Virus record (IMG/VR): IMGVR_UViG_3300036766_000429
Location: 1-54,942 of that record
Strand: one strand, 5' to 3'
Length of the DNA stretch: 54,942 bases
Source of the DNA: a virus
Lineage: Duplodnaviria; Caudoviricetes
In this document: positions 1,724 to 48,284 of the stretch, one piece after another
Position numbering within the stretch: position 1 is the stretch's first letter
How the letters are laid out: the number at the start of each line of letters is the position of its first letter
Program-made: the position numbers and the translations under genes
The notes under the pieces: generated by a model
The model's database searches: none
The model's input: the letters and a program-made list of their open reading frames with translations, nothing else
What the model was told of the DNA's origin: nothing

Positions 1724-4165
1724 ATGGCAGCCACATTTCCAGGCAGTACTAATGATTTACCGGGTGTAATAGTTAACGTAGAAACTCTAAGTCGTGGTGT
1801 CTCAGCTCCTAGCGGCATTAGACTCGCTTGCTTAATGGGTGAGGGCGCTAGACAAGAAACACTAGTAGCCAATGCTGTAGGCGGCGGTAATGACGGCCTT
1901 GACCCAACCTACTCAACTTCAAAAGGTTCGGACGGAAGGCACTTTACTACATCACTTGCCTCGCTCATCTCAAATCGTTCAAGATTATTCAAAAACGGAA
2001 TTGAGCTAAGTATTCTTCAAGGCGCAATTGATAGCAATCCTTTTGACCATAATTACGACGCCAAACTAGAAATCTCTACCGGTCACATTGAACTTCAAGC
2101 GGCTCAATTAGTAGATCAGGGTGGTTCATTTTATTCGGCAAGCGCTACAAATGTTGGAAACGGAGTAATTCAAAATCTTTCTTTGGTTGATACTGACGCT
2201 CCAACTGAGACTTGGACTGTTCGTTGTACTAGCGTTAGGAGAGATGGTTATGGAGCGGCTATCGACGGTTATGCTCGCTTTATTGCAAGAGGAACAAAGT
2301 CAGGAATCATACTTGATGGGTATGGAAATCAAATAGTATGGCAATCAAACGGAATCATTACCAGCAATACCATTCTTTCTTTTGATATTGCGGAAGGCTC
2401 AACGAAGTTCCTAGAGGGAGACACGTTTGTTATTCAGGTTAAAGGCGGTGCATTAGTAGCTGCCGATTCGCTTACAGTAAATTATATATCAGAAGCAGAC
2501 ATTAATGATCCTGAGTTTTTCAGCGATATAAACTCACTTGCTGCTAAACATGGATTTGCAAGCTTAACAAACAGATTAAGTTTGGGCGCGCAGATTTCTT
2601 TTGCAAACGCTACTCCTGGGGTATTTGCTTGTGAAACGGCCCCGGCATTACCTCGTAGAATTTCGTATTCACTAGTAACTTCGGCTAGTGGTGGAGTTAC
2701 GGCTGATGACCTAACATTCCCGCTACCATTAGGAGTTGTTCCGGATGCGAATTCCAACATACACTTCTTTATTACAAATGCAATTACCGGAGTTGAGTCT
2801 CAGGTAATTCCTAATAAAACTGATTATTACAACTCTTCAATTACTGCCAGTCCTAATACGTTTATTTTCGGAGCGTATGTATTTGCTTATACGGTTGTTC
2901 TTGAAAATTCAGTGCAGAAAGCAGGTATTGATGGAGTAATTACAGCGGCAGGAAATCTAAGTTCTGCTACTGTACAGTTTAACACTGACGATGTATCCGC
3001 CACTAGAACTGTTAAGATATATGACGCAACAAACGCCGGTAACAACGGAACATTTACTATTGTGTCTGTTGCTAATGGTATTATTAAGATATCTGGAGGA
3101 TCGTTTGTGGCTGAGTCTAATATTAGATTCCAAGTATTAGATTCTTCTTCACAGAGTGCAAAGGTTCTATTTACTGATGATTTGGCGCTTACTGCTGGGT
3201 CTGCGTTAAGAGCAACGATTGTAGATGAGAAAGATGCAACGTTCTTTGATGCTGGCTGGATTAATGCGTATGAGGCGTTAGAAAAAATTGACATTGATAT
3301 AGTTGTACCTCTTCCGTCACAAACAATTAGTGCAATATTTCAAAGTGGTAAAGCGCATGTTGTAACTCAAAGCAATTTACAGAATAAACACGAAAGAATG
3401 TTGTTTGTAGGAGCGATTCAGGGGCTAACTCCAGAAAATGTTATTGGATCTAAGCTTGCTGCGGCAGAGGATATTGGAATTCTTGAGGGAATTCAGGGAG
3501 ATACTGTTTCCGAGGTATTAGCTGGAAATACAGAGGACTTAACTAATTACGGTGTTCAAGATGCATTTGGAGATACATACAGGGTTGTGTATTTCTATCC
3601 TGATCAAATAGTAGTTCAGGTAGGATCTGATCGTCAGTTTGTTGATGGATTCTTTATAGCGGCAGCAGCGGCAGCGTTCTTCTCCGCCACAAACACCATT
3701 AACACACCGCTTACGAATAAAGTTCTTTCAGGATTTACGATTCTAAGGAACAAGATATATTCACCGATGACGCTTGCGAATATAGCGGCGGCGGGAATTT
3801 CAGTACTTCAGCCGGTTATCGGTGGAGGAAAGGTTCTTTGGGGCAAGACAACTACAACGAGTGGATTTGCTGAGGAAGAGGAAATTTCGGTTATATTCAT
3901 TCGTGACAGGATTGCGAAATCGTTACGAAAGACATTTGCTGGATTTATTGGTACGGCAGAGAATCCAACGTTCCAGACAACGCTCTTTGCAACGGCAACT
4001 GATGCATTCGGGTCTTTCATATCTCAGCGTCTAATCACAGACTTTAAGGATATAACTGTAACGAGAAATTCATTCGAGCCAAGGCAGTGGGACGTTACAG
4101 CGGCCGTTCAACCAGTACAGGCGATTAACTGGATATATTGCAGAGTTGACGTTGGGACATTATAA
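1724..4165 (+). CDS. Contractile tail sheath protein
   Basis: N-terminal LPGVIVNVE (sheath PGVY-like). C-terminal sheath domain (PLTNKVLSG, GISVL, EISVIFIRDRIAK, VQPVQAINWIY). Good SD; precedes the tube gene. Confidence 0.9.
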   Translation: MAATFPGSTNDLPGVIVNVETLSRGVSAPSGIRLACLMGEGARQETLVANAVGGGNDGLDPTYSTSKGSDGRHFTTSLASLISNRSRLFKNGIELSILQGAIDSNPFDHNYDAKLEISTGHIELQAAQLVDQGGSFYSASATNVGNGVIQNLSLVDTDAPTETWTVRCTSVRRDGYGAAIDGYARFIARGTKSGIILDGYGNQIVWQSNGIITSNTILSFDIAEGSTKFLEGDTFVIQVKGGALVAADSLTVNYISEADINDPEFFSDINSLAAKHGFASLTNRLSLGAQISFANATPGVFACETAPALPRRISYSLVTSASGGVTADDLTFPLPLGVVPDANSNIHFFITNAITGVESQVIPNKTDYYNSSITASPNTFIFGAYVFAYTVVLENSVQKAGIDGVITAAGNLSSATVQFNTDDVSATRTVKIYDATNAGNNGTFTIVSVANGIIKISGGSFVAESNIRFQVLDSSSQSAKVLFTDDLALTAGSALRATIVDEKDATFFDAGWINAYEALEKIDIDIVVPLPSQTISAIFQSGKAHVVTQSNLQNKHERMLFVGAIQGLTPENVIGSKLAAAEDIGILEGIQGDTVSEVLAGNTEDLTNYGVQDAFGDTYRVVYFYPDQIVVQVGSDRQFVDGFFIAAAAAAFFSATNTINTPLTNKVLSGFTILRNKIYSPMTLANIAAAGISVLQPVIGGGKVLWGKTTTTSGFAEEEEISVIFIRDRIAKSLRKTFAGFIGTAENPTFQTTLFATATDAFGSFISQRLITDFKDITVTRNSFEPRQWDVTAAVQPVQAINWIYCRVDVGTL

Positions 4166-4799
4166 AATATGTTTAACTGAAGATTGCGGGGCCCAAGCTT
4201 ATAAAAGTGGTCGTTGCAGAGACTGCTCTAACGCAATGGGAAGGGCATTATATATAAAAAATAGAGATAAAAGAATTGCGTCAGCAAAAAAATGTGCAGC
4301 CAAACATGCAGATCGCGTAGCTGCATATGACAGAGAATATCGTGCCAAAAACAAGGATATTTTGCAGGAAAAAGCAAATGTTCGCAGAAATAAAAGAATA
4401 AAAAACGATCCATTCTTTAAATTACGAATATATGTGTCAACAGCAATCTTTACAGGATTAAAAAATAATAACGGATCTAAATGCGGCGTGTCGATAATAT
4501 TAGCATTGCCATATACAATAGGGGAATTAAAACTGTATTTAGAGTCTTTGTTTGAGCCTTGGATGACATGGGAAAATAGAGGAAGGTATGTAGCTAAAAA
4601 ATGGGATGATAACGATCCTACTACTTGGAGATGGCAATTAGATCACATTATTCCGCAGGCTGATTTGCCGTACGATTTAATGGAACATCCTAATTTTAAA
4701 AAGTGTTGGGCGCTGTCTAATTTGCGGCCATTAAGTGCAAAAACAAACGTATTAGATGGAATTCATAAAGTTAGACATAATAGCGTTGCATTTTTATAG
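4146..4799 (+). CDS. Free-standing HNH endonuclease between sheath and tube
   Basis: Cys motifs at the N-terminus; LFEPWMTWENRG...WQLDHIIPQADLPY...CWALSNLRPLSAKTN. The TTG start overlaps the sheath 3' end and is uncertain. Confidence 0.8.
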   Translation: MTLGHYKICLTEDCGAQAYKSGRCRDCSNAMGRALYIKNRDKRIASAKKCAAKHADRVAAYDREYRAKNKDILQEKANVRRNKRIKNDPFFKLRIYVSTAIFTGLKNNNGSKCGVSIILALPYTIGELKLYLESLFEPWMTWENRGRYVAKKWDDNDPTTWRWQLDHIIPQADLPYDLMEHPNFKKCWALSNLRPLSAKTNVLDGIHKVRHNSVAFL

Positions 4800-4810
4800 A
4801 TTAGAACGTA

Positions 4811-4825
4811 GGCATAATGGTGTAT
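4811..4825 (+). promoter_or_regulatory. Candidate late-promoter motif (GGCATAATGGTGTAT) upstream of the tube gene
   Basis: Intergenic; matches the shared 15-bp pattern. Confidence 0.45.
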
Positions 4826-4862
4826 TTTGATGAGTGTATAACAACTTAAATTGGATGGATAA

Positions 4863-5483
4863 ATGGTAACTTTAAATACAGAGTCTAGTTCTTCTGATGG
4901 GCAGAATAAAACTTTCACATCGGTAAGCACAAACATCATAATTAAAGTAGGTGCCAATCCGGTTGGAGCTATAACCTCTCTGTCAATTAATGAAAACAGA
5001 CCGATTGCAATGATTGATGAAGTTGGAACTGACGGTCATATTGATAGCGTTCCGAAATCAGCTACTAATATTACCGGAGATTGCAAGCGTACTCGTTTTG
5101 ATAATTTAAGAATTGCGGCGGCGTTTAGTAGAGGGTTTATCCACGTAGCGTCACAAAGAGTTCCGTTTGACATTCATATTATTGATACGTTTGCTGGTTC
5201 TGATCCTGGCTCGATGCTTACAACTGTTATTAAAAGCGTTTGGATCAGTAAAATTAATTATACATACAGCGCGTCTGACTTTATCATTGTTGAAGATATG
5301 TCTTGGGAAGCCGAGAGAATTTATTCTACAATTGGATCTGGCAACGCAGTAACAACTGTCGCTGGCGGCCGTAACTTAATATTGCCAGGAACCCCGAATG
5401 AATTTGAGCGTCAAACTGATAGGGGCGGTCGCATTGGTTCTTTGGATGCCTCTGGGTTACTACTTGAAATTGGTTTGGTATAA
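4863..5483 (+). CDS. Tail tube protein
   Basis: 206 aa, beta-rich, with jumbo-phage tube-like motifs (IKVGANPVGAITSLSINENR, EVGTDG, PFDIHIID, WISKINYTYS). Located after the sheath. Confidence 0.8.
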   Translation: MVTLNTESSSSDGQNKTFTSVSTNIIIKVGANPVGAITSLSINENRPIAMIDEVGTDGHIDSVPKSATNITGDCKRTRFDNLRIAAAFSRGFIHVASQRVPFDIHIIDTFAGSDPGSMLTTVIKSVWISKINYTYSASDFIIVEDMSWEAERIYSTIGSGNAVTTVAGGRNLILPGTPNEFERQTDRGGRIGSLDASGLLLEIGLV

Positions 5484-5502
5484 CTGATCGAAACTGCCTG
5501 AT

Positions 5503-5552
5503 ATATATACTTGTTGTGCGTATAATGTCGCATAATAACAAGGAGTATATAT
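5503..5552 (+). promoter_or_regulatory. Imperfect hairpin occluding the RBS/start of the chaperone gene, with a candidate promoter motif (5519-5533) in its upper stem/loop
   Basis: Pairings ATATATA/TATATAT, CTTGTT/AACAAG and GTGCG/CGCAT overlap AAGGAG and the ATG at 5551. Confidence 0.45.
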
Positions 5553-6180
5553 GGGAAGAATAGAAAGCGATATTGGATCTAGAGAATTTGATTCTTCTGG
5601 GTCTGGGATGAGAAACTTTACTGTAAACGATGAAAGTCAGCCTCAGCAGCCTCAAATGACAGCTGCCGAGGTAATGGCGGCTCGTCAACGAAAGGTACAG
5701 GAATATGGGCAAGTAAGCGATTCTGCAAAGCGTAGAATTGAATTACTTGTTGGTATTGGGAGATCAAAAGTTGATGTCCCGGTAGAAACTGATAATGGCA
5801 AAACTACGTATTCTTTACGAACTCTTAAGAGCAGAGAGGTAAAAAAAGTACTTCATCTTGCAACAGAATTATCTGACAATAAAACAAGTCAATTAGAAGG
5901 CGTGTTAATATTAAGAGAAAGAGTTTTGGCGTATTCGCTATATGCTATTGACGGCGTTGATGTTGATATAATGCTTAATATAGTTGGGAACGAGCATGAG
6001 AGGATAGCGGCGCGGGCGGCATTTTTAGAGGAGCAAGATGACAGTTTTATTGGTCACATTTACGAGCATTATGAAAAATTAACAAAAAACAATACAGCTA
6101 AATATTCTGTTAAGACAGAAGAGGAGGCGAAGGAGGTTGCTGAGCAAATGACCAAAAGTGGTGAAGGACCCAGGGCATAG
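5551..6180 (+). CDS. Tail assembly chaperone (lambda G-like position)
   Basis: Between tube and tape measure; YSLRTLKSRE motif and acidic helical C-terminus; strong SD. Confidence 0.65.
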   Translation: MGRIESDIGSREFDSSGSGMRNFTVNDESQPQQPQMTAAEVMAARQRKVQEYGQVSDSAKRRIELLVGIGRSKVDVPVETDNGKTTYSLRTLKSREVKKVLHLATELSDNKTSQLEGVLILRERVLAYSLYAIDGVDVDIMLNIVGNEHERIAARAAFLEEQDDSFIGHIYEHYEKLTKNNTAKYSVKTEEEAKEVAEQMTKSGEGPRA

Positions 6181-6517
6181 ATTCCTTCATTATTTATGTG
6201 AGACATTTGGAAAGAATCCTGACGATGATTTTTTTGAGGAGATGGATCCGTTTGTAAAACTTTGGTGGTTCGAGCATTGGTCAAACAAAATCGTGACTGA
6301 ACTTGAGAATTATAAGTCTTTAGCAATTTTAGTTGGGTCATTTTCTAATTTGGAGATGGCTCAGAAAATGGTAAAGAAAGACAATCCAGATTTCCAGTCA
6401 TCAGAAGAGGATGTAGAAAAATCTATGAAAATGATAAGAGAGTATAAATCAGAGGAAGAGATACAACAAGCAACAACGCCACCACGTAGGAGAAGAAGAA
6501 AAGTGGTTAAGGAATAA
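6158..6517 (+). CDS. Second tail assembly chaperone ORF (T-like), overlapping in the +1 frame
   Basis: Overlaps the upstream ORF by 23 nt, has a GTG start with no well-spaced SD, and sits directly before the tape measure. Confidence 0.55.
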   Translation: MVKDPGHRFLHYLCETFGKNPDDDFFEEMDPFVKLWWFEHWSNKIVTELENYKSLAILVGSFSNLEMAQKMVKKDNPDFQSSEEDVEKSMKMIREYKSEEEIQQATTPPRRRRRKVVKE

Positions 6518-6521
6518 TTAG

Positions 6522-8666
6522 ATGGCAGCAGGAGATCCAATAGCACCGGAGGCACCGGCGATATCGCCAGGAACGCCAACCACAATTGATGCAGCAACAG
6601 CCAGCGCCAGTAAATATAAAGATGTTATGGGGGCGCTGAATGAGATGACAAAGTTGGCCGGAAATACAATTGAGCAAGTTTGGAATAATTTGTCGAAGAT
6701 AAATTTAGACAGTATTACCGATCAATTGTCTGTTGCTAGTTCTGGAATAAATGATTTTGGTGCGCAGGGAGGTTTTGCACTTCTTGCTATGAGTAATGTT
6801 ATAAAAGTTAATGCTGACTTATTTGGGCAGCTTGGAGTTGCCGGCAAACAATCTGGATTATCTATTGCTGAAGGATTTACAAGTTTAAAACCATTTTTAG
6901 AGAAAATTCCATTAATAGGACTTTTAGCTCCCGGTCTTGAGCGAGTAGCTAGTGCGGCGGATCAATTTCAGTCTTTAGAGACGGGTATAATCGCAGCAGC
7001 GGCGGCTTCAGGCAATCTAAACAACATAATGGGCGCGGTTCATGAAAATTTTGATGGACTAGATGATGTAGCTGCTCAATACAACGCGCAAATAAATGAC
7101 GCAGCTACACGCAGTGGAATGTTGATACCAACTGTTGCCAAGTATGCTGCTGAATTAATGAAAATACCTGGCGCATTAACAGATACAACTTATGAGTTCG
7201 GAGAAAGTGCGGGCAAAACAAAGACATCTGTGAACGATCTTTCTGACGGAATGAAGGTCGCGGCTGCATACGGTCTTAATCTTGCCGATGTTAGCAAAAG
7301 ACAAAATGAGCTTTATACTAAGTTTAATATAGAAGGCGGAGCGAGTCTAAGTATTATTGCAAAAATGGCCAAGGCAAGTCAAGATTTGGAAGTGCCAATG
7401 GAAATAATAAATAGTTCTACTATGAAAATAGCCGACTCATTTAAATTATTTGGAGATAATACCAGTAGTGCGTTGACGATTGTGAGTGCTTTCCAGGGAG
7501 CTTTGAAAGACACGACATCAAAGGAAGCAATTACAGAGGTAGTTGAGGGGTTTTCTTCTGGAATAAAAAGTATGGACACGGCTCAACAGGCATTTATTTC
7601 TGCGCAATCAGGAGGTAAAGGCGGTATTGCCGGAGCTATGCACGTTCAGTTTTTGCAGCAACAGGGCAAAATGGATGAAGTGGCGGAAATGGCAAGAAAA
7701 GCTATGACCCGCCAATTTGGTAGAATATCAACAACCGCAGATGTAGAAAAAAATGCAGCATTAGCCCCACAAGTACTAAAAGAACAAACCATGTTAATAA
7801 ATATGGGGTTAGCAAAAGATCAAGGCTCTGCTAATAAACTTATTGAATTTCTTGCGACTGGCAAAAAAATTGAAGAGAAAAAAGACGATCAAAAAGTTTT
7901 ATCGGAAGCCATAGACAGAGGAGATAGATTTCAACAAAAACAAACAAGTGATTTAATAAGTATTGCTAATGCTGGGACTATAGCTCAGCAATTAACAGCG
8001 GCGTCTAGCTATGCACTTTTGCAAACTATGAAAGGCACCGCTGAAAAAGGTATGAGTAAAATTCCTACTGGCGAAATGGCTAGTTATTTAAACCCTGCCG
8101 TAGATGCATTCAAGAGCAGTATGAATGTTAAGAATCTAATGGATACAGACGCATTGTCCGGTATGGCGGCAGCAATCGCGGAGAAAGCGGGTGCGAAAGA
8201 ATATATTAGACCAGTATTTGCGGCAGATGAGGCAAAAGAGGCAGAAGAAAAGAAGAAAGCGGAAAAGGCAAAAACAGGAATTGATTTATTATCTGTAAAG
8301 GCGGAAGAAGAAAACCCAGCTAGACATGAAGAAGCGTTACGTCGCTCTGGTATTCTTGGAATTTCTCCGTCCGCACCAGTAGCCCCTGAAAGTCGCTCTG
8401 GTATTCTTGGAATTTCTCCGTCCGCACCAGTAGCCCCTGAAACGCGCGCCGATCTTCTGCCACCACACGAGGAAAGATTACCTGCTGGGGCACATGGAGC
8501 CGCTGCACGAGCAATTGGAGGAGGCGCTGGCGTTCGAGGGCAAGATAATTTAGTTAATATAAAAATACAAATTGTAGAATCAGATTTATTTAAAGTCAAA
8601 ATCCACGAAGAATCTAAAAAATATCTAGATGGAGTTTTTAACATTACAACGGGGAGTTCTAAATAA
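6522..8666 (+). CDS. Tape measure protein
   Basis: Ala/Gly/Ser-rich, predicted helical, 714 aa; canonical position after the chaperones. Confidence 0.75.
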   Translation: MAAGDPIAPEAPAISPGTPTTIDAATASASKYKDVMGALNEMTKLAGNTIEQVWNNLSKINLDSITDQLSVASSGINDFGAQGGFALLAMSNVIKVNADLFGQLGVAGKQSGLSIAEGFTSLKPFLEKIPLIGLLAPGLERVASAADQFQSLETGIIAAAAASGNLNNIMGAVHENFDGLDDVAAQYNAQINDAATRSGMLIPTVAKYAAELMKIPGALTDTTYEFGESAGKTKTSVNDLSDGMKVAAAYGLNLADVSKRQNELYTKFNIEGGASLSIIAKMAKASQDLEVPMEIINSSTMKIADSFKLFGDNTSSALTIVSAFQGALKDTTSKEAITEVVEGFSSGIKSMDTAQQAFISAQSGGKGGIAGAMHVQFLQQQGKMDEVAEMARKAMTRQFGRISTTADVEKNAALAPQVLKEQTMLINMGLAKDQGSANKLIEFLATGKKIEEKKDDQKVLSEAIDRGDRFQQKQTSDLISIANAGTIAQQLTAASSYALLQTMKGTAEKGMSKIPTGEMASYLNPAVDAFKSSMNVKNLMDTDALSGMAAAIAEKAGAKEYIRPVFAADEAKEAEEKKKAEKAKTGIDLLSVKAEEENPARHEEALRRSGILGISPSAPVAPESRSGILGISPSAPVAPETRADLLPPHEERLPAGAHGAAARAIGGGAGVRGQDNLVNIKIQIVESDLFKVKIHEESKKYLDGVFNITTGSSK
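8341..8442 (+). repeat. Perfect 2 x 51-bp in-frame tandem duplication in the tape measure gene
   Basis: 8341-8391 is identical to 8392-8442; encodes RSGILGISPSAPVAPE twice. Confidence 0.95.
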
Positions 8667-9607: not shown

Positions 9608-9615
9608 GAAGTTAT

Positions 9616-14637: not shown

Positions 14638-14649
14638 GTTAAATAATAT

Positions 14650-16686: not shown

Positions 16687-16693
16687 GGTTTAA

Positions 16694-18802
16694 ATGGTTT
16701 GCTCACCCTCTGACAATAATCTGAATCCTGGTCCAAGTATACCAGTTCCGCCTATTCCTGGGTTTGGCTTTCCGTTCATGCCCCCAGCAATACCTTATCC
16801 TGACATTAAACTTCCCGATGGAATTCCAGAAGATCTGCTAAACCTTCTGAGCAAAATCCTTGCAAACATTCCTGGCGGTATAATGCTGCCATTTGTAAAT
16901 ACAGCTTCTAAAAAAATATTAGATTTGATTGCAAGTTTACTTAATCAGCTTTCCCCGTATTTATCGTTGTATAATTTCTTTCAAGCGCTACTTAACATGA
17001 TTATGTGTATCATGGATGTTTTGTGCGCTTTGATGAATCCGTTTGCAATTTTCCGCGCTCTTAATAGATTGTTTAAACGTTGCTTGCCAGACTTTCTTAA
17101 TTTGTTTCCATGGCTGGCTCTTATCGCCATGATTATAGCTTTATTGCTTCTTCTGCTTGCTTTAATTGATTATCTCATATCTCAGATAATAGCAATCATT
17201 CGTGACATCATTGAGAATTTACTTCTACTCGCTAAAGTTATATCATTCAAAGGAACTGAATCTGACATAATTGCAGCGGCTAGAAAAATTGCAATGTTAC
17301 TTTGTATAATTGAACAACTGTTTGCAATATTGGTTGCCTTTAAAGCTATTATGGCAATTATACAGGCATTAGCTGCCATAGCCGGAAGAAGTGTGTGTGG
17401 CTCTGGAGATACTGAGACTGGAGACGACCCTGGGTGTTGTGATCAAAATTCTTGCCCAGATTTCATAAGTCAAAATCCAGACGGACTAACTGGTACCGTT
17501 GGAGAATTAATTTATTACTCTCAAGCAAACAACGTATTGATAGGACTCCTTGCCGATCTTGTTGTTCCGCCACTAAGAAATGAAAGTTGGCAATTTGTGG
17601 ATCTTAAAACTCAGCAGTTCAATATAAAAGATATAATCACCCCTAGCGCAGATGGAAGTATTTATTGGCCAGACGGAAATACATTCGCTGCTGACTCAAG
17701 TGTAAAACGCGCGCCTTACTTACTTGACATGACCATGAGTATAAACCCTCATGTATTTAATAGCTCTGATGTTGGCGGACTTCGTGAATTTGTAATAAAA
17801 GACGCAATAGCAGTGCAAAAACCATATATCGGAGCAACCACATTTAACGGGAGCATTGATTATAACAAACAGAACGGCACAATACTAGTTCAAGGTGGTT
17901 TGGTATATGAGGCCGACGGAACAACTCCATATTTAATTAGCGGGGTACAGGCAACATTAAATACCTTTATACATAAGCCGGCTATTCAAGGGGCTCCCGC
18001 GTCTGAAGATGGATATTTTATACACAATATAAAGTATACATTAAAACCAAATCATGCAGCGTTGGCGATAACGTATGGATTAATTACTGCTGGGTGTATT
18101 CCTGCCATTGCTTCTGAGCGCGCCATAGTAAACATTGTAGCGCAAACGGCGGTCCCACAACTTGCATCTGTTATAAGTAGGATTGGGCCGCTTCCAGATA
18201 TTGACGCTGCTATAACTTGTATGACTACTGCTTTGGCAAAACTAAGAACAGATGTATCTCCAGTTAACACGGCAATATTTCAGGCTGAAGTTGAAGTATG
18301 TTTGGGGACTTTAAGGAAACAAACTATAGATTCGTATACCGCTTGTGTTACCGGTGGGGTTAGTCCATTTAAAACAACTGTGTCACTAAACACCAATTTA
18401 CAATTCACTAGTTTACCAATCAAGGTTTCCGTGACATTGAGAGATCCAAGCGGAACTGTGATTACTCAAAACATGCCTATAGAAAGCCAGGCCGAAATAG
18501 CAAAATTAATTACCTCTGATGTTACTTTTGGGAATGTGTCAACCTTTGTATACGATGGGTATCAAGATTTCGTGGCAGATTTGACATCAACCGCTCCTGG
18601 AAGTGGTGAGCTTACGGCGTCATTTGAGGGAAATGTAATTAGTATTGTTACCGGGCAAAATAATGATGCTACCCCTACCGCAATAACTAATGACACTAAG
18701 ACGTATACTTTTGTTGGTGCTGGTGCTGGTGCTGGTGCTGGTGCTGGCAGTGCGGATCCTGTACCGCGCCGTAACGAAAGCGATATTGGTGGTGGTGATT
18801 AA
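16694..18802 (+). CDS. Unknown virion protein with Pro-rich N-terminus, long hydrophobic helices, a Cys cluster and a C-terminal Ig-like domain
   Basis: FPWLALIAMIIALLLLLLALIDYLI hydrophobic stretch; VCGSG...GCCDQNSC; Big-1-like pattern VSVTLRDPSG...ADLTSTAPGSGELTASFEG. Confidence 0.5.
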   Translation: MVCSPSDNNLNPGPSIPVPPIPGFGFPFMPPAIPYPDIKLPDGIPEDLLNLLSKILANIPGGIMLPFVNTASKKILDLIASLLNQLSPYLSLYNFFQALLNMIMCIMDVLCALMNPFAIFRALNRLFKRCLPDFLNLFPWLALIAMIIALLLLLLALIDYLISQIIAIIRDIIENLLLLAKVISFKGTESDIIAAARKIAMLLCIIEQLFAILVAFKAIMAIIQALAAIAGRSVCGSGDTETGDDPGCCDQNSCPDFISQNPDGLTGTVGELIYYSQANNVLIGLLADLVVPPLRNESWQFVDLKTQQFNIKDIITPSADGSIYWPDGNTFAADSSVKRAPYLLDMTMSINPHVFNSSDVGGLREFVIKDAIAVQKPYIGATTFNGSIDYNKQNGTILVQGGLVYEADGTTPYLISGVQATLNTFIHKPAIQGAPASEDGYFIHNIKYTLKPNHAALAITYGLITAGCIPAIASERAIVNIVAQTAVPQLASVISRIGPLPDIDAAITCMTTALAKLRTDVSPVNTAIFQAEVEVCLGTLRKQTIDSYTACVTGGVSPFKTTVSLNTNLQFTSLPIKVSVTLRDPSGTVITQNMPIESQAEIAKLITSDVTFGNVSTFVYDGYQDFVADLTSTAPGSGELTASFEGNVISIVTGQNNDATPTAITNDTKTYTFVGAGAGAGAGAGSADPVPRRNESDIGGGD
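18716..18745 (+). repeat. (GGTGCT)5 in-frame hexanucleotide repeat encoding (Gly-Ala)5
   Basis: Read directly from the sequence. Confidence 0.95.
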
Positions 18803-20565: not shown

Positions 20566-20578
20566 TGTCATTTGGAAA

Positions 20579-20632
20579 GAAATTGGTCAACCAGAAATTG
20601 TTGCGGGCGGATCTACACCAGAAGGAACTTAA
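20579..20632 (+). pseudogene. Diverged orphan copy of the last 17 codons plus stop of the upstream gene, carried in front of the HNH gene
   Basis: Reads EIGQPEIVAGGSTPEGT* versus QLGQPKIVDGGSSPEGT* (20512-20565); many differences are synonymous. Confidence 0.85.
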
Positions 20633-21381
20633 TGAAAAAATGTATTAAGTGTGGTGAAGAAAAAAAAATAAATAAAGACAATTTTTATTTTCGTAAAAGC
20701 AAAAATAATACTTATATATGTAATTCTAAATGCATAGTTTGTATTAAATTAGATAGAAAAATATACAGAGAAAACAATAAAGAAAAAATTAAAGCAACAA
20801 AAAAAATATACAGAGAAAATAATAAAGAAAAAGTACTTGCTGCATCTAAAAAATGGATAGATGAAAATAAGAAATCATACGAAGAGTACCAAAATAAATA
20901 TAGAGAGTTAAATAGAGAAAAAAGCAAGGAGCGCCATAAAAACAATAAAGAAAAAGAACAAAAACAAAATAAAGAATGGGAGTCTAAAAACAAAGAAAAA
21001 AGAAATAAATACAGAAGTGAACGAAGAAAAAATAATTGTATTATATCTATTAGAGAGGGTTTTGGTAGGGCAATTAATAAGGCTTTAAAAAAGAATTGTT
21101 CATCTAAGAAGGGTAATTCTTGCTTGCTTTATTTGCCATACACCATAGATGAATTAAAAAAGCACTTACAATCTTTGTGGGAGCCGTGGATGAATTGGGA
21201 TAATTATGGGAAATATAAAACTGGCGGCCCTAGAAAGTGGCATATAGATCATGTAATTCCACAATCATTATTACCATATCATTCTATGGATCATATTAAT
21301 TTTCAGAAATGTTGGGCGTTATCTAATTTGAGACCTTTAGACGCCGTTCAAAATATGTCAAAAGGGAAAAATGTCATTTGA
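20632..21381 (+). CDS. Free-standing HNH endonuclease (start revised to ATG 20632)
   Basis: MKKCIKC...KCIVC zinc ribbon, YRENNKEK repeats and WHIDHVIPQS...CWALSNLRPLDAVQN; AAGGAA SD upstream. Confidence 0.8.
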   Translation: MKKCIKCGEEKKINKDNFYFRKSKNNTYICNSKCIVCIKLDRKIYRENNKEKIKATKKIYRENNKEKVLAASKKWIDENKKSYEEYQNKYRELNREKSKERHKNNKEKEQKQNKEWESKNKEKRNKYRSERRKNNCIISIREGFGRAINKALKKNCSSKKGNSCLLYLPYTIDELKKHLQSLWEPWMNWDNYGKYKTGGPRKWHIDHVIPQSLLPYHSMDHINFQKCWALSNLRPLDAVQNMSKGKNVI

Positions 21382-21802: not shown

Positions 21803-21806
21803 AGTC

Positions 21807-21821
21807 GGCATTTTTTCGCAT
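21807..21821 (+). promoter_or_regulatory. Candidate late-promoter motif GGCATTTTTTCGCAT
   Basis: An identical 15-mer occurs at 31792-31806; both are intergenic and upstream of structural genes. Confidence 0.6.
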
Positions 21822-21887
21822 CATATCAGGTTCTCTTGATATATAATAGGTCGAATTAATGAATGATTTTTACAATGAGGCGGTATA

Positions 21888-24800: not shown

Positions 24801-25136
24801 AGCGCTGATATTTTAGTAAAGTCTGCGGTAGCACTGCTCGTAGATGCTTCGCTAGTAATTGTTGTCTCTACTTCATTTGCTAGCCAAGGAGCAAGTCAAA
24901 TAGTAGCACAAAACGTACGAGACGCAATTACATCTACGTTAAATGCTCAAGCGCTAGGGACATCTATTAACTCTTCTAATTTGGTTAATGCGGCGTATAC
25001 AGTTCAGGGAGTTGACAGGGTTAGAGTTTCTTATTTTAATATAAACGGACAAATTGGAAGCGTACTAACGATAGCCGCAACAAAAAACCAATTTATACAA
25101 GCAAATAATGTTCAAGTGACAGTTGAGACTGCATAA
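21888..25136 (+). CDS. Baseplate J / gp6-like wedge protein with a large internal insertion
   Basis: DLDRLGQNYGATRK, IPINKGDIV, GTIGNI, GGSNSEDDSAFRNR and GKVDVYI baseplate-J motifs; C-terminal VQGVDRV. Confidence 0.85.
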   Translation: MARLKSTNDLILNALDFFRAAQPQLSLNPGTVARDLFVDNPSTQLSRLYEELARIRTSQSLRLSIGIDLDRLGQNYGATRKQGSKSSGPALFTFNAIDADIPINKGDIVTANNGATFVVVNSQTVSAVFANTYRATASLFRTALDFVGNTDQYAAQVSLEATSIGTIGNISKYALSTASTAGVSGVINAVAFGGGSNSEDDSAFRNRVLAIFSGANTGTSLGYRNAALSDNAVLDAIVVGPGDTLMTRDGTQVNVSEDGTRTIVSEGTGGKVDVYIFGTRLTEILDSFVYQDKSNKQDPTDPKNDFVLGQIAADAGKTVSRKRLDDLQTGVLPSQPVNNIFIVSGSSSGENFSQKQTDSLGRVTGNYELIKDTGAFAGSPWGFDKLHWISNKISGFSEDLTKGRFNGQDPVTFTDVLKISAIKQNIQVNNENSRINTSDRTSIQLSHFPITSVTRVFNLTTGERYVVANQNPDGTGSTNTTGRIVISGNTLPATSDILQVDYTWLYSYDPSFDFDNKVNGNNPRQVTDSVDWGFSNAVRRQQSLITVTGSQFTTTVTHPITAVISVNTFLSQSSIVTLISGRLAVVVSNTVANVVSILKTTDLAELFVTGANNGTFSGLTIFLPTDTTAEVGDAVDVVYNANDVFTVSGISGSFDGNIITLSADANVVAGTLVECNYISNIKTLLPTTLLPNLPAIRNENTFKTAINVSIGTQPVTNIFSSPGVIEQNLRQAPSRLQLSISGNISPGVITVSGTTFSGVFDSIITSSSNLLTYNLSSVIKSALGLSSAQTVPSNVEVVRVINVEKVTTTSSLDVLSVDHSFDIKNYKLRNNSFVKSECVSDSLLTTTEFSLPETPDNLANIPNIGDRLRVTFYFSTTSDSENVAFSKTGSLFTQKIFALVDTVAISSGFTSAQSQSASISILNQNQPASGTRYSPAYDYLAPKSNERIIIKYNENKLISDSTINIEAVRPISADILVKSAVALLVDASLVIVVSTSFASQGASQIVAQNVRDAITSTLNAQALGTSINSSNLVNAAYTVQGVDRVRVSYFNINGQIGSVLTIAATKNQFIQANNVQVTVETA

Positions 25137-28100
25137 TGGCCAATTTAAGATTAATACAAGTAAAAGCTGGCGATATACGCACAATAAATGCTAGTTTTAA
25201 TAATACGCTTGATCCCTTAATAGGCACATCTAACGTTACAGTATCATCTCTTATTGTTGGGACCCCTGATGCTGAGATTATTGCGGTTAGCGTAAGTGGA
25301 AATAAGCTTGCCATTACAGTTCAGCCGCTTACTCCTCACGCTGCATATTTAGTGACATTTAAGTCTACACAAACGGTTATCTTTAAATCTCTAGATGGCG
25401 CCTCTGTTTTATTTGAAGATGGAAGTACAAATACCGCACAAATATTAGGCCCAGAAGATCCTGAAAATCCAATAAGAAACAATCTAGTATCATTCTTAAA
25501 AGATAACGTTTATAATCTTAGCCGTGGTACATTAGTAAGATTAATTATAGATCAATTGGCAACCTCTTATTTGGGAGCGAGAACCGATATAAGACAATCG
25601 AAAACTGATAATTATTTGAAATTTCAGGTTTTTGATGAAAGAAAAGTTAGAGGAAGTGGTCCATTTGACAGGCTTAATGAAGAGGGCGTGTTTAATGTGG
25701 TTAGGGTTGGGAAGACGCCAACTGGAGACACTGGTAAGTTAAGCTTTAGTTTTGACAGTTTCCCATTTGATTTGATCACTTTACAGAGAACGGATGTTAT
25801 TGGAGAGTCTCTTCAGGCGGGAAACTCAGACGTTAAGGGCACATTTGATGGGCTAACATTAACTGTAAATAATGGGCCGGTTACAAAAGTAAATAGCGTT
25901 GTCATAAAATACCAAAACTCAACTGTGTTTACGTATGATATTCGTTCTTATGGGTACAGGCTACAAAATCCCGTATATGACACTGCGTACGCTTCAACAT
26001 TATTATCACTAGAAGACAACCAAGTAAAACTAAGCGATGAAATTTTGGATGCCGCCGGATTTGTTGTTCCGGGTGGTGGCGACATTATATCTATTAATTA
26101 TGAATACAAATTTGTTGGTCGTTTTGTTGATGAGTCTACCGTGCAAGTTTCGCAAGTATTAAATGAGGCGCGCGAACCAACCCCGGCGCTTTTGAATCAA
26201 TTTTCATTGGGGCATGCTCCGATTGTTACTGCGGCAGATCAAATTCCAACTAGTGGTGGCGTTCAATTTTTAGACCCAAATTCAGCCACACCATTTTTGA
26301 CAATACATCCGGCCTTTACCACGGAGATACCGTTTGTTAAGAACGCAATTCCAAGCAGCATCGGAGAGTACGCTGTAGATTATGAAACTGGCACCGTGTT
26401 AGTTTATGGAGCAACATCAGCTCATGATGGTTCAGGAAATTTCCCACCAGGCGCTACATACAATTACAGGAATGTTTTTGTTAGCGGCTTAGACTATACG
26501 TATAGGGCAGAAACTAGCGAATTAGTTGCAAGCCCCATTAGAGATTTAATATCTCAGTCAGCAAAAATATCTTTTAGTTTTGAAGACGTATTAGTTGCCG
26601 GAAAAGATTATAACGCCCTAGTACATAAAGAAGTAATTGACGAAAGAATTCAAAATAGAATTAAAACAACAAATAGCATTGGGACATTAAACGCATCATT
26701 GACAGATGTTTTTAGAATTTTTAATGAAACAACCGGCGAAGTATATTCTCTAACACGATTCAATGACAGTTCCGTATTTTTTAATTTTAGAAATGCCCCA
26801 AGAATATTACAATCGATAAGAGAAAGGGCCACGTTTGAAAGCGTGACAAATGAATCACTAATAGTATCAAAAGATTCTGTTAATATTTTAAGCACAAGAG
26901 TATTAAAAGCACAATTACTAAATAATAGAATTATGTCAACTACTGATGACGTAATAGGTTCTAGTTATAATACAAGCGCTCAATTTAGCAAAACAAGTAT
27001 ATTTGTTACAGAATTATACTATGATACGCTATTAAGCCCCACAATAAATACAAATAGGCTTAATGTTGGCCAGTATCAAATTGATTATAGAAACGGAACT
27101 GTATATGTCGGGGTAACAAATGCGCAAACTTTTGACATTGGAACAGTCTCATATAAAAAGCCGGCTGTCGTATCTCAAAACGCACATATTCTCGGGGTCT
27201 CTAATATTTATTATAGCCTAGACCCAAACACAGGAGTAACTAAGACACTAAATTATACAAGCTTTAATGACACTGAAATATTTCCAAGCTCATTTGATGT
27301 GTCTGATGAAAGGTTTTTAAATGGCGATACTACGCTTCCATATTTTGAGAACGCCGGCACAATTACAGTTACTGACGATATAAAAAATATTCGTCATATA
27401 TTTGATGTATATGACCTAGATCATAATATTGTTCCTACCGATTTTTCTGATGGTGCAACTTTTTCAGCAAACATTATTACCCTGGATCCAAGCGGTGTTG
27501 AAAAAAGAGAAGTATTAGTTGTTGAGCCTGGGCTAAAGCTAAATGTAAGTTTTATATCTCCTGGCATTGAAGTTAAAGGAGCAATTAGCGCTGTACGAAT
27601 AATTGACGGGTACCAACTTCTTGATGGCTATGAAACCATTTCCGGAAACACAATAACCTTATCAGTAACAAGCGGAGCAGTAGTTGGAAATGTTGTTGAT
27701 GTCATTTATACAGTAGTAATGAATGGTGCAGCAACTCCGATAGTCGATTATAATAGAGGAGATTACTTTATAGATTATACGTATTTAGCCGATGAGATAC
27801 TTGTAAGTTATGAGTACGGAGATAACGTATTAGATTTTAGGGAAGGATCTGCGCTTGGAGAGGGAGATGAGTATTTCGTAACGTACCAAGCTGGTGCCCT
27901 TAGAGACGCATTACAAAACAACTTTGGAAGTTTAGTTGATATTCCAGAGTTAAACGCTGTTGATATTCATTTGTCAAGAGATACGTACAGAGATGCATTA
28001 ACCGCGGCATTACAGTGTTTTACAAAAGGGCCAACTATACCCGCCATTAGCGCAATTGCCTCTAATATAACCAAAATAAATCCGCAAATTATAGAATCTG

Positions 28101-31100
28101 TATTTGATGTTTGGTCACTAGGCATTAGTTATTTGTTCAAAGATGAAATTGTTACATACGGAAACCCTAAATTAGTTGCCGGAAAGTTTGACCAAGGAAT
28201 ATTAATTGATACGCCTGGCCAAGCAGTATCATTTTCTGTTTCTAATAATGTGCGGCTTGATGAAGGCACTATAGAAACATGGATTATACCAGAGTGGAAC
28301 GGGCTAGATAATGATGCCACGCTTACAATATCTCCAATATTAAAGGGCGGCTATGCTATATCTGCCTCAGCAATATTTATTGGGGCAAGTAGTTTCAACC
28401 CAACACTTGATGATAGCGGATCTTTTTCTTTAAACAGAAGAGATGATTTGAGTCCGGTAGGATTGCCATCAGCCATTTACACTAAACTTGGAATGTTTAT
28501 ATTTTATGACACAGACGTCAATCACTGGAAAATAATATCTAAAGATTTCGCAGACGGATATGTATACTCTGGAACGGTGCAATCGTCAGGGGAAGTGTAT
28601 GACGCAAAGTTTATAGACAATTTCAGTCATCCAGGCGATATAATAAGAAGCAGTGGCAATAAAATAGATTTTTCATTTAATATGGACGGTTATCAAGACG
28701 GATATATCGATGGCTATACTCCCGGATATGCTTTCGACGGAATTACATTTATGGCTGACGAGGAACATTTTATATTTGACTTTGCTGAAACAAAGGACAA
28801 GAACAGATTTTCATTATTTAAGGATGGCAGCGGGTATTTAAACTTTAGCGTTTGGGATCGTGGCGGAAAATATAATCAAAAGAAAGACAGAAGAAATAAT
28901 TACAATATTAGCGCCGACATTCAAGGGTGGTTAGCTGGAGAAAAACATCATGTCGCTATATCCTGGAAACTAAATACTTCAGACAGAAGAGACGAAATGC
29001 ATCTTTTCGTTGACGGCTTCGAGGTTCCTAATATTATGCTTTATGGAGGAAGGCCTATATCAACATCAACAGATAGGTTTGGAACAGTTAAGCCAGAAAT
29101 AATTGCCGGAACAGTCCCTCTTACCTGTGTTGTCGGTGCGGATCTTCAAACAAATTCAGGATCTTATTTCGTAACATCTGCTAGCAATAATTTTACGTCA
29201 GACGGAATTCTTCCTGGTAATACAATTCAAATTAATGAGACTGGTTTTAGTACATACTCAATACTAGCGGTTAGCGGGAACACATTGCAATTAAACACTG
29301 CTATGCCAGCAACATTATCAGATGCTAAATTCTCTGTAAACCCATATTCTGCCGTTGTATCCAGCGAAATAGATTTGTACTCCAATATAGCCGTATCAAT
29401 TCTAAGTGGAGCCGTAGAAACAGAAATACCTGGGTTAAGGGCTACTGTTCCCGCTTATTCTATCAGCAAAAACGGACTAAATCAAAATGTATTAACGCTT
29501 TTAGGTGACGCTAAGGCTGGCGATAAGGTATTGATAAGAACCCTTGGAAGAAATCACAGACGATGTAGAGATCAAGTATTTATATGGGGCAATACACAGG
29601 CCGTTCTTAAAACCGCATTACCCCCGCCAATAAATCTTGATGAAGCAAGCATCGTGGCGGTAGTTATGCCTTATACCGTAATTGGCCCAGCAAACTCTAC
29701 AATTTCTTTTGGAAACTTTGTAGCAACAGGACTCCCTATAACTCAACCGACCAATAGCACAGAAGGCCGTAAACTATCGATTAGAGTTACTGGCGGAAAT
29801 GTAAACTTTGGTACGCCGACAACAGTAACTATTAACGGAACAACAGCAGCAGGCCCATTACTTGAAACATTAACATTCTCTGCCGCAGGAACGCAAAGCA
29901 CAACCAATAAATTCAAAACAACTTCTTCCGTTGATGTACAGACAACTCCATTGATAACTAGTAAAAATGGAGTAGCAGTAGAGATAAAGGAAGTGTATCC
30001 GATCACAATCCCAGATGGAAATAATGCATATCCAGTAATTAGATTTGCTTATAAAACGCAATCTGGTTTTTCTTTGCAGGGTACTGGAAATACAACAGTT
30101 ACAGATAATAATGGATTCTTTCCGTTATCTGATGTTGGAAATTTGTTAGTAATTACTTATCCGGCCCCGGTAGCAGGAACATACACTATAGCTAATCGTC
30201 TAAATAACACGAACGTACAGTTAAACATTCCTACTGGCTCTGCGTTTTCTGGTGGGAAATATGATACGTTTAACGTTTCAATTGGTCGTAGCGGATTTCA
30301 GAATGGATTTTTCTTCTTAGAAACCGCCGGAATGACAAATATACCGTACCCAATTCCTCAAGGCGTTTATGAATTTGATTATCAGTCTTTCTTAGAAGTT
30401 CCATTTGATCCAATAAACCAAACAGCATTTGTTGGTTCGGATTTTAATTTAACCAAGCCGGCCAAAGCGGTGTTGGATGAACTCAGAATATCTTCTCACA
30501 TGATGACTGACACAAGGGTTGGGGAAACTATTGCGGCAAACCAAGAGTCTATCACAACTGATTTTATATCAATTAGAGAACTTAGGAAAAATCATTCTAC
30601 ATTGGCACTGCTGCACTTTAACTCATTGCCGCTAATTAATGATTCTGATTTTTATGTATTGGCAGATAGAGATTTCGTTCAGTCGGCAGATAGTGTTAAT
30701 GCTAATTTTGGCCAGAGTATAGTTATAACCGATAAGGGGCTATCTTTTGATAATAATGGCAGGCTGACAACTAGAAGCGAAGGGACAATAGAATTTTGGG
30801 TTAGTCCAAGATTTGATACATATAACGACCCTGTTCCAAGAGTTTATTTTGACGCCACAAGCTCTGTAGTAGAAGAGGAAGTTAGTATTACAAAGGGGAC
30901 TGTGAAGGTATCAAGAAGTATAGAGCAGGTTCTTAGTGTAAGATTGCAAACTGATACTAAAGATTCTGGTCAAGATTATTTTCAAAGCGGCACAGTTTCA
31001 AGTGACCGCCAAACAATTAATTTAAAAGTAGCGCTACCATACCAACAAACACCTGTTAAAATTGCCTACATACCTTCTGGCCTTGGCGGGGACCGAATTA

Positions 31101-48281: not shown

Positions 48282-48284
48282 ATA

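Follow-up and report, generated by a model that had tools for sequence, protein, structure and literature searches.

The 54,942-nucleotide DNA of the virus record IMGVR_UViG_3300036766_000429 (Duplodnaviria; Caudoviricetes), hereafter the window, encodes a phage tail followed by a large set of glycosylation-related genes, and the tripeptide Asp-Gly-Tyr (DGY) recurs in four of its virion proteins. The contractile-tail and baseplate module of a very divergent phage occupies positions 359-34739. Beyond it, at positions 35268-54808, lie approximately 20 kb of genes for glycosyltransferases (GTs; GT2, GT4-like, GT6, and GT11), methyltransferases, and sugar activation, and every large open reading frame (ORF) of the window is on the plus strand. 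The window is rated 8% complete, and because its relatives are contigs of up to 459 kb, it is a fragment of a megaphage genome. Profile libraries (Pfam and PHROGs) matched almost nothing among the outer proteins of these divergent megaphages.

The first of the four DGY-bearing proteins is the tail sheath (813 amino acids [aa]; positions 1724..4165, plus strand), recognized by a weak match to Pfam Phage_sheath_1C (E = 8.5e-5) and by an AlphaFold2 model (predicted local distance difference test score, pLDDT, 81.7) that has the sheath fold: Foldseek aligned it with the phi812 sheath (E = 2.7e-14) and with many other sheaths. Its three DGY tripeptides, at residues 174, 181, and 198 (nucleotides [nt] 2243, 2264, and 2315; span 2243-2323), are located in an N-terminal extra domain. 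A 702-aa virion protein (16694..18802, plus strand), for which no Pfam or PHROG family was matched, carries two, at residues 439 (nt 18008) and 621 (nt 18554). Its long N-terminal half is very hydrophobic, with membrane-like segments, and the protein also contains a Cys-rich stretch and, toward the C terminus, a (GA)5 run; this makeup is unusual for a protein of the baseplate region. The third is a 2217-aa baseplate-wedge-like protein (25136..31789, plus strand), preceded in the tail module by a tube-initiator-like ORF, a sheath-initiator-like ORF, and baseplate J (E = 3.3e-16). It contains six DGY tripeptides, of which three are at residues 824, 830, and 1140 (nt 27605, 27623, and 28553) and three form an array at residues 1184, 1188, and 1192 (nt 28685, 28697, and 28709; span 28685-28717). 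Residues ∼1960 to 2057 give a borderline match to the concanavalin A (ConA)-like family Laminin_G_3 (E = 4.5e-6; 27.3 bits versus a cutoff of 27.6), and region 1030-1330 is paralogous to this C-terminal region (BLASTP E = 2e-8); by this sequence relationship, the array is placed within or beside a ConA-like/LamG-type region. A profile of the wedge-like protein had no match among PDB sequences at E values up to 1. The fourth, a 973-aa distal baseplate/fiber-like protein with an internal dockerin at residues 586-654 (31818..34739, plus strand), contains nine, at residues 584, 622, 638, 681, 688, 694, 713, 898, and 904 (nt 33567, 33681, 33729, 33858, 33879, 33897, 33954, 34509, and 34527, respectively). 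Its AlphaFold2 model (pLDDT 82.2), for which Foldseek returned a local dockerin match only, consists of β-sandwich domains whose weak structural neighbors are carbohydrate-binding module (CBM) and lectin folds.

The 40 ORFs of at least 100 aa in the window, all on the plus strand, were translated and DGY was counted; expectations for the structural set of 11,446 residues were taken from residue frequencies or corrected for dipeptides. DGY occurs 20 times, in 4 of the 40 ORFs, against 1.5 (residue frequencies) or 2.5 (dipeptide-corrected) occurrences expected in the structural set (Poisson p = 3e-16 and 3.5e-12, respectively). It ranks first among the 4,433 tripeptide types observed and leads the next (p ∼6e-6) by ten orders of magnitude in p. 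Within the structural residues, 20 of the 69 DG dipeptides (29%) are followed by Tyr and 20 of the 29 GY dipeptides are preceded by Asp; the residue before the Asp is Ile, Leu, or Tyr at half of the DGY sites (10/20). The remaining 36 ORFs, including the tube-region ORFs, a 1673-aa protein, baseplate J, and the 22 ORFs of the enzyme cluster (6,500 residues), are free of DGY. These figures bear out a first-pass annotation of this DNA, which had listed 20 DGY tripeptides at coordinates that were all recovered on translation, had put the chance expectation at about two, had noted that roughly a third of DG dipeptides are followed by Tyr, and had confined the motif to four virion proteins, with none in the tube, tape measure, hub, spike, baseplate J, or the enzymes. 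The 20 tripeptides fall in approximately 10 clusters and cannot be counted as independent, but even 10 occurrences against an expectation of 1.5 would be far beyond chance.

The same annotation had pointed to varied codons as a sign of selection at the protein level, and the nucleotide data agree. Asp is encoded by GAT 11 times and by GAC 9 times, Gly by GGG (6), GGA (6), GGT (5), and GGC (3), and Tyr by TAT (19) and TAC (1). The pattern GAYGGNTAY has 22 matches on the plus strand, of which all but 2 (20 matches) are in codon phase 0, and 1 match on the minus strand, while a reversed-pattern control has 3 and 2. The phase bias and the few control matches indicate that the signal is at the protein level, and an origin in DNA-level repeats or slippage is ruled out by the same counts. 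Pure composition is also ruled out, since the zero-order and first-order expectations are far below 20 and neither permutations nor conservative variants of the motif are enriched. A diversity-generating retroelement was considered because a single substitution converts AAY into an Asp or a Tyr codon; it was rejected on the grounds that the sites are fixed in 82 to 99% of homologs and that Pfam detected no reverse transcriptase in the window ORFs. The clustering of the sites, and the possibility that part of the wedge array stems from local duplication, are what an artifact of chance, composition, DNA-level repeats, or internal duplication could appeal to. Such an artifact is nevertheless counted as refuted, given the p values and first rank of DGY, its varied codons in phase, its retention across hundreds of homologs that are 55 to 74% identical, and its presence in four unrelated proteins and in both clades discussed below. 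DGY is a real, virion-restricted motif. It is apparently undescribed so far, as no description of a DGY or Asp-Gly-Tyr motif was found in the literature on phages or Tyr glycosylation (supplementary files were outside the scope of the search).

The specificity of the motif was assessed in a near-complete relative, G001 (96% complete; 400,000 of 409,147 bp analyzed, 486 ORFs called). Its virion-structural block (48 to 121 kb; 50 ORFs, 23,192 aa) contains 46 DGY tripeptides against 3.4 expected, again the first-ranked tripeptide, whereas the 435 ORFs outside the block (96,672 aa) contain 16 against 13.6 expected (rank 1,899). The comparison of structural with nonstructural proteins suggested in the first-pass annotation thus confines the excess to the former. 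Only the exact ordered tripeptide is enriched in the block: the observed and expected counts are 7 and 6.3 for DGF, 0 and 1.2 for DGW, 2 and 3.5 for NGY, 0 and 2.6 for EGY, 3 and 4.5 for SGY, and 1 and 2.6 for DAY, and the permutations GDY (3 and 3.4) and YGD (4 and 3.4) are equally unremarkable. DGY has the form of a sequon, that is, a short ordered motif with a competent acceptor Tyr. Tyr-to-Phe swaps are rare at conserved sites, with, for example, 1 in 121 sequences at fiber site 584. The lack of enrichment of DGF, NGY, EGY, and the permutations argues against a generic turn-plus-aromatic element and against a mere richness in Tyr, Gly, and Asp. The specificity instead suggests that the Tyr hydroxyl and the Asp carboxylate are both required in that particular geometry, and a required Tyr hydroxyl is what an O-acceptor predicts. 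Upstream of the sheath, the G001 block encodes further DGY-rich proteins of 531 aa (six DGY), 1747 aa (five), and 713 aa (three); for these proteins, and for the capsid protein, Pfam and PHROGs gave no or only weak matches.

DGY enrichment was also found in other relatives. Sixteen loci were gathered with the 973-aa protein (34 to 58% identity). The wedge homologs of the 16 loci each carry 3 to 11 DGY tripeptides against 0.4 to 0.7 expected, and 15 full-length fiber homologs carry 2 to 12 against ∼0.2 expected; a partial fiber homolog of 443 aa, in locus L016, has none. The baseplate-J-homologous ORF carries 0 to 3, with 0 to 1 in ten closer loci and up to three in four distant loci. On the coding strand of relatives G001 to G008, the DNA pattern has 27 to 101 matches versus 5 to 28 for the controls. 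By these comparisons, DGY enrichment is a family trait of uncultivated megaphages. Among reference phages, T4 (19 matches versus 15 for the control) and phiKZ (53 versus 40) have no excess, and phage G has an approximately 2-fold excess (58 versus 26) at low density, with no comparable clusters among the matches listed. A general property of myovirus structural proteins is therefore ruled out, both by the lack of excess in T4 and phiKZ and by a sister clade of sheaths that lacks DGY at the three sheath positions.

The homologs numbered 441 for the sheath and 617 for the fiber, and conservation of the individual sites was examined in aligned homologs. The sheath sample comprised 126 sequences, namely, 120 database matches (58 to 100% identity) and 6 sequences from the sister clade; alignment A1 holds 48 sequences hand-picked for spread from the 120 matches and the loci, and alignment A2 likewise holds 50. 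Sheath sites 174, 181, and 198 are DGY in 112, 116, and 115 of the 126 sequences, respectively. In the sister clade, the three positions hold DAF-, xGT-, and DAN-type residues, and DGY tripeptides of its own occur elsewhere, so the fold does not require the motif. In 121 fiber sequences, there are on average 8.7 DGY tripeptides per sequence against 0.22 expected, and the nine sites are DGY in 79 to 120 of them, with sites 898 and 904 reaching 118 and 116. Distant fiber homologs (34 to 44% identity) lack most of these sites but have others. Turnover is greater in the wedge, where 15 homologs contain 80 DGY tripeptides against ∼7.9 expected, spread over 33 alignment columns, 20 of them singletons and many in indel columns. 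This alignment (A3) includes 15 of 17 sequences, without L009, in which the DGY positions track those of L006, and L016, which has the same wedge as L015. Where a wedge homolog lacks DGY at one of these columns, it often has DGx, NGx, or DNx instead. As for the 702-aa protein, DGY439 is kept in G001 and DGY621 is not, but G001 has a DGY 11 residues upstream.

The wedge array at residues 1184-1192 varies among homologs from 2 to 5 copies with spacings of 3 to 8, and it is expanded in locus L007. A scan of viral contigs for (DGYx)3 recovered the same wedge loop, with the same flanks and 3 to 7 DGY copies, in proteins of 1185 to 3215 aa from other contigs. Of the (DGYx)3 frames inspected, 47 of 81 are small, low-complexity ORFs rich in Gly, Tyr, and Asp. 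These widespread ORFs, found in loci L056 to L130 (viral contigs, mostly 30 to 60 kb), are 50 to 350 aa long and consist almost wholly of Gly/Tyr/Asp/Ser repeats of the DGYG/YGDG type.

The sheath and fiber models cover 12 of the sites. At 9 of these, the Asp and Gly are in coil; at the other 3, they close a strand or helix on its C-terminal side. The sheath sites are in coil between strands 162-170, 185-190, and 194-197 of the N-terminal extra domain, where pLDDT is ∼90. Fiber sites 638, 681, 688, 694, 898, and 904 start in coil, and a strand or helix terminates at each of sites 584, 622, and 713. The segment that holds sites 898 and 904 (893-912) has pLDDT <50, although the two sites are among the best-conserved residues. 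Exposure was judged from topology, that is, from DSSP strings, pLDDT, and domain logic rather than solvent-accessibility values. Minimal sheaths consist of the conserved core only, and because the extra domains of solved sheaths face outward, the DGY sites of the sheath are probably on the tail surface.

A separate source of DGY is the dockerin of the 973-aa protein, where Pfam Dockerin_1 spans residues 586-654 (E = 6.6e-8). DGY638 is inside the second EF-hand-like loop, DGY584 abuts the first loop, and DGY622 is between the two; the first-pass annotation had assigned one or two DGY tripeptides to dockerin loops, and the Dockerin_1 match places one to three in the dockerin region. Among the 20 sites, DGY638 alone fits the 12-residue EF-hand/dockerin Ca2+ loop (Asp or Asn at positions 1, 3, and 5, Gly at 6, a hydrophobic residue at 8, and an acidic residue at 12), where it forms positions 5-7 of a DxDxDG-type loop. 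The other 19 sites do not fit; unlike DGY638, they lack the D-x-D/N-x-D context and occur in unrelated folds. Dockerin loops therefore cannot explain the enrichment. A tenth fiber site, at position 592 in the first dockerin loop, is DGY in 57 of 121 sequences, or about half of the homologs. The dockerin module itself (window 33573-33779) is embedded in a distal baseplate/fiber-like protein and kept in nearly all of the 120 homologs. A cohesin partner was found in none of four records (the window and three relatives).

The GT cluster begins 1 kb past the last baseplate/fiber gene and comprises at least eight GT domains in addition to the methyltransferases and sugar-activation genes; the same linkage of phage-encoded GTs to the structural module occurs in relatives. 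Its proximal core is conserved (35801..43135, plus strand) and encodes, according to Pfam, a 366-aa GT-B-like protein, a GT2, a GT2-like protein, a 325-aa unknown protein, another GT2, and an 899-aa GT2+GT6 protein. In tblastn searches, the 366-aa GT-B-like gene was missing from only 1 of 16 targets; in the other 15, it invariably comes directly behind the fiber gene. The target that lacks it has only 533 bp of downstream sequence; the core ORFs that follow were found in 12, 11, 7, 8, and 8 of the 16 targets, the first two being the GT2s. The distal half is variable (43132..54808, plus strand) and encodes GT11, RMNT_CmcI, Methyltransf_11, FkbM, Glyco_trans_1_2, DUF7796-like, HAD, PfkB kinase, and NTP-transferase+RpiB families (Pfam). 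Its ORFs (∼44.6 to 54.8 kb) mostly have 0 to 1 matches among the 16 targets, whose loci reach ∼10 kb past the fiber gene, and the near-complete G001 also lacks most of them. The GC content of the distal half is 0.30 to 0.35, versus 0.37 to 0.41 for the structural genes. A GT2 adjoins the tail module in the window and in 8/8 relatives, in both clades, and was found above the Pfam cutoff in 3/5 further records, for a total of 12 of the 14 related or DGY-array-bearing megaphage records. The two records without a GT2 above the cutoff, G013 (none) and G012 (a below-cutoff match), are fragments that are 16% and 21% complete.

The 899-aa protein (40436-43135) has an unknown N-terminal portion of 400 aa, followed by a GT2 and then by a GT6 resembling Bacteroides BoGT6a (4ayj; E = 2.3e-31), and a GT11 fucosyltransferase-family ORF is encoded nearby at 43865-44632. 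The GT6 and GT11 matches suggest a histo-blood-group (ABH)-like fucosylated glycan. Two unannotated ORFs of the cluster region, 35268-35804 and 43132-43923, are probably paralogous mobile ORFs because their matches in relatives coincide, one of the shared positions being within the tail module of G001.

We infer from the virion restriction, the order specificity, the intolerance of substitution at Tyr and Asp, the placement in loops, the conserved sites, the repeated gains, and the (DGYx)n arrays that one trans-acting factor may recognize the motif, and DGY is most simply read as the recognition site for such a factor. The best candidate would be the cytoplasmic glycosylation machinery of the phage, the core of which adjoins the fiber gene in both clades. 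The leading reading, to which we assign a probability of roughly 0.35, is that DGY is a Tyr-glycosylation sequon written by this machinery. A putative initiating transferase would recognize the Asp-Gly turn on folded or assembling virion proteins and glycosylate the Tyr hydroxyl of DGY. The core enzymes would then extend the glycan, and the variable distal enzymes (GT6, GT11, and methyltransferases) would complete an outer glycan that is fucosylated, methylated, and particular to the lineage, giving the tail and baseplate a coat. The arrangement of a conserved core and a variable periphery, as read from gene content, fits a fixed protein linkage with a variable outer glycan. A more specific version, in which DGY would be the sequon of a phage-encoded cytoplasmic Tyr O-glycosylation with the 366-aa GT-B-like protein as the most likely initiator, acting on Asp-Gly turns of the sheath, wedge, and fiber proteins throughout a widespread megaphage clade, is held more tentatively. 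The proposal of the first-pass annotation that DGY marks surface loops modified by the adjacent GTs stands in part: all 12 modeled sites are in loops or turns, the motif is restricted to virion proteins, and the GT cluster adjoins, but the two enzyme families linked to Tyr glycosylation are absent from the window.

Several observations weigh against a glycosylation sequon. GT8/glycogenin and Wzy_C O-oligosaccharyltransferases are two families linked to Tyr glycosylation, and in the window and three relatives, the GT8 catalytic domain (glycogenin-type, PF01501) was found in 0/4 records and Wzy_C (O-oligosaccharyltransferase-type, PF04932) likewise in 0/4, whereas the control search for the latter was positive in 10/14 reference genomes; a new kind of initiating enzyme would therefore be needed. 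The 366-aa protein gives only a weak, partial GT4 match below the cutoff (E = 5e-5) and has no match among PDB sequences. The cluster could instead target the host envelope, DNA, or lipid, and surface-polysaccharide loci just as typically combine a conserved core with a variable periphery. No relative lacking GTs was found among the 14 megaphage records examined, so the co-occurrence of GTs and DGY carries no discriminating weight. Two complete megaphages, G009 and G010, have GT2 genes yet only a weak DGY excess (71 and 66 matches on the gene-rich strand versus 33 to 50 for controls). Conversely, other viral contigs commonly carry (DGYx)3 arrays, with at least 119 stretches counted; of 50 such records, just 4 have a GT2, and none of these is among the 16 records with a completeness of 90% or more. 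This check used PF00535 only, for 50 of 80 loci, and other GT families could be present; the loci left out (L051, L053, L058, L069, L079, L086, L088, L092, L102, L106, L108-L110, and L114-L130) were large wedge-like or megaphage loci, apparent duplicates, or otherwise set aside by list order. Conservation of 82 to 99% at eight of the nine fiber sites (65% at residue 622) and of 89 to 92% at the sheath sites, among homologs that are 55 to 74% identical, is also expected from a structural or ligand-binding element. Finally, the exposure of the sites rests on topology, and at least DGY638 simply belongs to a dockerin Ca2+ loop.

The sequon reading can be compared with known glycosylation systems. 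Freeman et al. (2023) reportedly described virion glycosylation in mycobacteriophages. Phage-encoded glycosylation of this kind, with glycans at the C termini of capsid and tail-tube subunits, is cited in PMC12619734, and the likeness to the present case is in phage GTs near structural genes, virion proteins as the proposed target, and a glycan coat as the proposed outcome. The systems differ in that few GTs are involved there, versus at least eight GT domains with methyltransferases and sugar-activation genes here, and in that the candidate sites here are internal loop tripeptides with a Tyr, known from sequence alone. No C-terminal-tail arrangement was found in the window: DGY is internal, the ORFs between the sheath and the baseplate, including the tube region, have none, and there is no capsid gene. 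Chloroviruses and other giant viruses carry out self-encoded cytoplasmic glycosylation at atypical sequons. They resemble the present phage in having multidomain GTs and sugar methyltransferases, in their independence of the host secretory machinery, and in using sites other than N-X-S/T. They are, however, eukaryotic viruses with Asn-linked glycans on the capsid protein, whereas a tailed phage, a putative Tyr acceptor, and tail and baseplate proteins are at issue here.

Among bacteria, Tyr O-glycosylation is known from S-layer proteins of Paenibacillus alvei and Thermoanaerobacter and is called unresolved in PMC2943079, the available portion of which reports no DGY context. The acceptor there is likewise a Tyr on a repetitive, self-assembling surface protein; in that account, a lipid-carrier glycan is moved outside the membrane by an O-oligosaccharyltransferase, whereas virions assemble in the cytoplasm. 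Known short sequons include N-X-S/T and the D-(S/T)-(A/I/L/V/M/T) motif of Bacteroidota O-glycosylation. Like these, DGY would be a three-residue ordered motif that includes the acceptor, with an obligatory Asp as in the Bacteroidota case, and would be enriched on exposed sites and gained and lost between relatives. Unlike them, it would have Tyr as the acceptor at position 3 and Gly at position 2, and many DGY sites are more conserved than typical sequons. The DGY case would differ from the mycobacteriophage, giant-virus, and S-layer systems in acceptor, site type, target proteins, or enzymology.

An explanation that we regard as a serious rival, though not as probable, is that the Asp/Tyr loops are unmodified ligand-binding patches, serving as sticky, paratope-like or lectin-type sites on the outer tail and baseplate. 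They would bind a host surface polysaccharide or other environmental ligand and raise adsorption, and the (DGYx)n arrays would tune avidity or host range. The wedge array is in or beside a ConA-like/LamG-type lectin domain, although the Laminin_G_3 match on which this depends falls just under the Pfam cutoff, and the β-sandwiches of the fiber weakly resemble CBM and lectin folds. Array copy number and spacing differ between relatives, as in host-range determinants, and the strand order of the model suggests that the three sheath sites share one end of a small sheet. Natural binding loops are made up predominantly of Tyr, Gly, and Asp, and ligand binding accounts for DGY arrays in phages without GT2. 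On the other hand, a composition-driven sticky loop should enrich permutations as well as DGF and DGW, none of which is enriched, and the same exact tripeptide in at least four unrelated folds, including the sheath, is hard to account for. An intrinsic structural element is a serious rival too, though an unlikely one in our estimate. Here, Asp-Gly would form a tight turn or Asx-type cap and the Tyr would pack or hydrogen bond to staple loops, possibly with Ca2+, as a lineage-specific solution for rigid extracellular proteins that requires no trans-acting factor. The placement of 12/12 modeled sites at turns or strand/helix ends, the frequent Ile, Leu, or Tyr before the Asp, as in hairpin flanks, the very high positional conservation in the sheath and fiber, the DGx, NGx, and DNx residues at wedge columns, and the genuine dockerin/EF-hand loop position of DGY638 would all follow from it. 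A generic turn should, however, tolerate Phe, Trp, and Asn, and DGF, NGY, and EGY are not enriched. The rest of the G001 proteome has no DGY excess, the sister sheath clade has other residues at the same positions, arrays at a spacing of 3 to 4 (DGYDGY and DGYxDGY) cannot each be a hairpin turn, and sites 898 and 904 are in a low-confidence segment.

Two further explanations invoke a partner or another chemistry. A docking motif, through which a shared decoration, cement, or assembly protein would recognize DGY turns on several virion components, had also been raised in the first-pass annotation. It would suit the restriction of the motif to the virion, its fixed order, and its occurrence on a number of distinct outer components, including the 531-aa and 1747-aa proteins encoded upstream of the sheath in G001. 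We consider it quite unlikely, as the analysis yielded no candidate for a reader protein, no cohesin to pair with the dockerin was detected in the four records, and variable-length tandem arrays with frequent lineage-specific gains would be unusual for a stoichiometric docking site. Other Tyr chemistry, such as phosphorylation, sulfation, O-methylation, or an oxidative Tyr-Tyr cross-linking that toughens the particle, is very unlikely. The strict requirement for Tyr with a neighboring acidic residue and the several methyltransferases of the cluster are compatible with it, Gly/Tyr-rich arrays resemble cross-linkable low-complexity proteins, and (DGYx)n is superficially like the (YGx)n tails of bacterial tyrosine kinases. 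Yet the Pfam search of the 22 cluster ORFs, 6 of which have no family, turned up neither a protein kinase nor a sulfotransferase or oxidase, and the methyltransferase matches are of sugar or small-molecule types (RMNT_CmcI and FkbM).

Other repeated features were noted in the window and in G001. The ORFs at 359-1639, 4146-4799, and 20572-21381 of the window share a near-identical C-terminal motif of ∼25 aa that includes K-C-W-A-L, and they have no DGY. They occur to either side of the sheath gene and also between genes of the baseplate, and one of them matches PHROG endonuclease families (E = 1.5e-9); judging from these features, the three look like homing-endonuclease-type mobile ORFs. In G001, four proteins (59846-61408, 119897-121081, 128936-130039, and 139101-140396) contain 3 to 5 copies of a ∼60-aa unit ending in W-C-P-x-C (zinc-ribbon-like), one of them encoded directly after the fiber gene, and WCP occurs 8 times in the virion block against 0.07 expected. 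Between 12.7 and 382 kb, 52 ORFs of G001 form a multicopy family with a ∼25-aa repeat that includes L-S-E-x-F-I-R-E-F, and FIR occurs 156 times outside the virion block against 14 expected.

The motif, the sheath domain, and the core genes are small enough for coexpression, even though the phages are uncultivated. We know of no description of recognition rules for Tyr glycosylation, and if the sequon reading is true, DGY would be the first defined sequon for Tyr glycosylation and would represent the first Tyr-linked glycosylation in a virus. As a modification site, it would provide a sequence-readable marker of the virion surfaces decorated by a lineage of huge phages, together with a defined sequon and a short list of candidate Tyr-glycosylation enzymes. 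If DGY is instead a binding or structural element, the selection of one exact tripeptide across several unrelated virion folds would still be unusual, and the motif would help to annotate outer proteins in very divergent megaphages.

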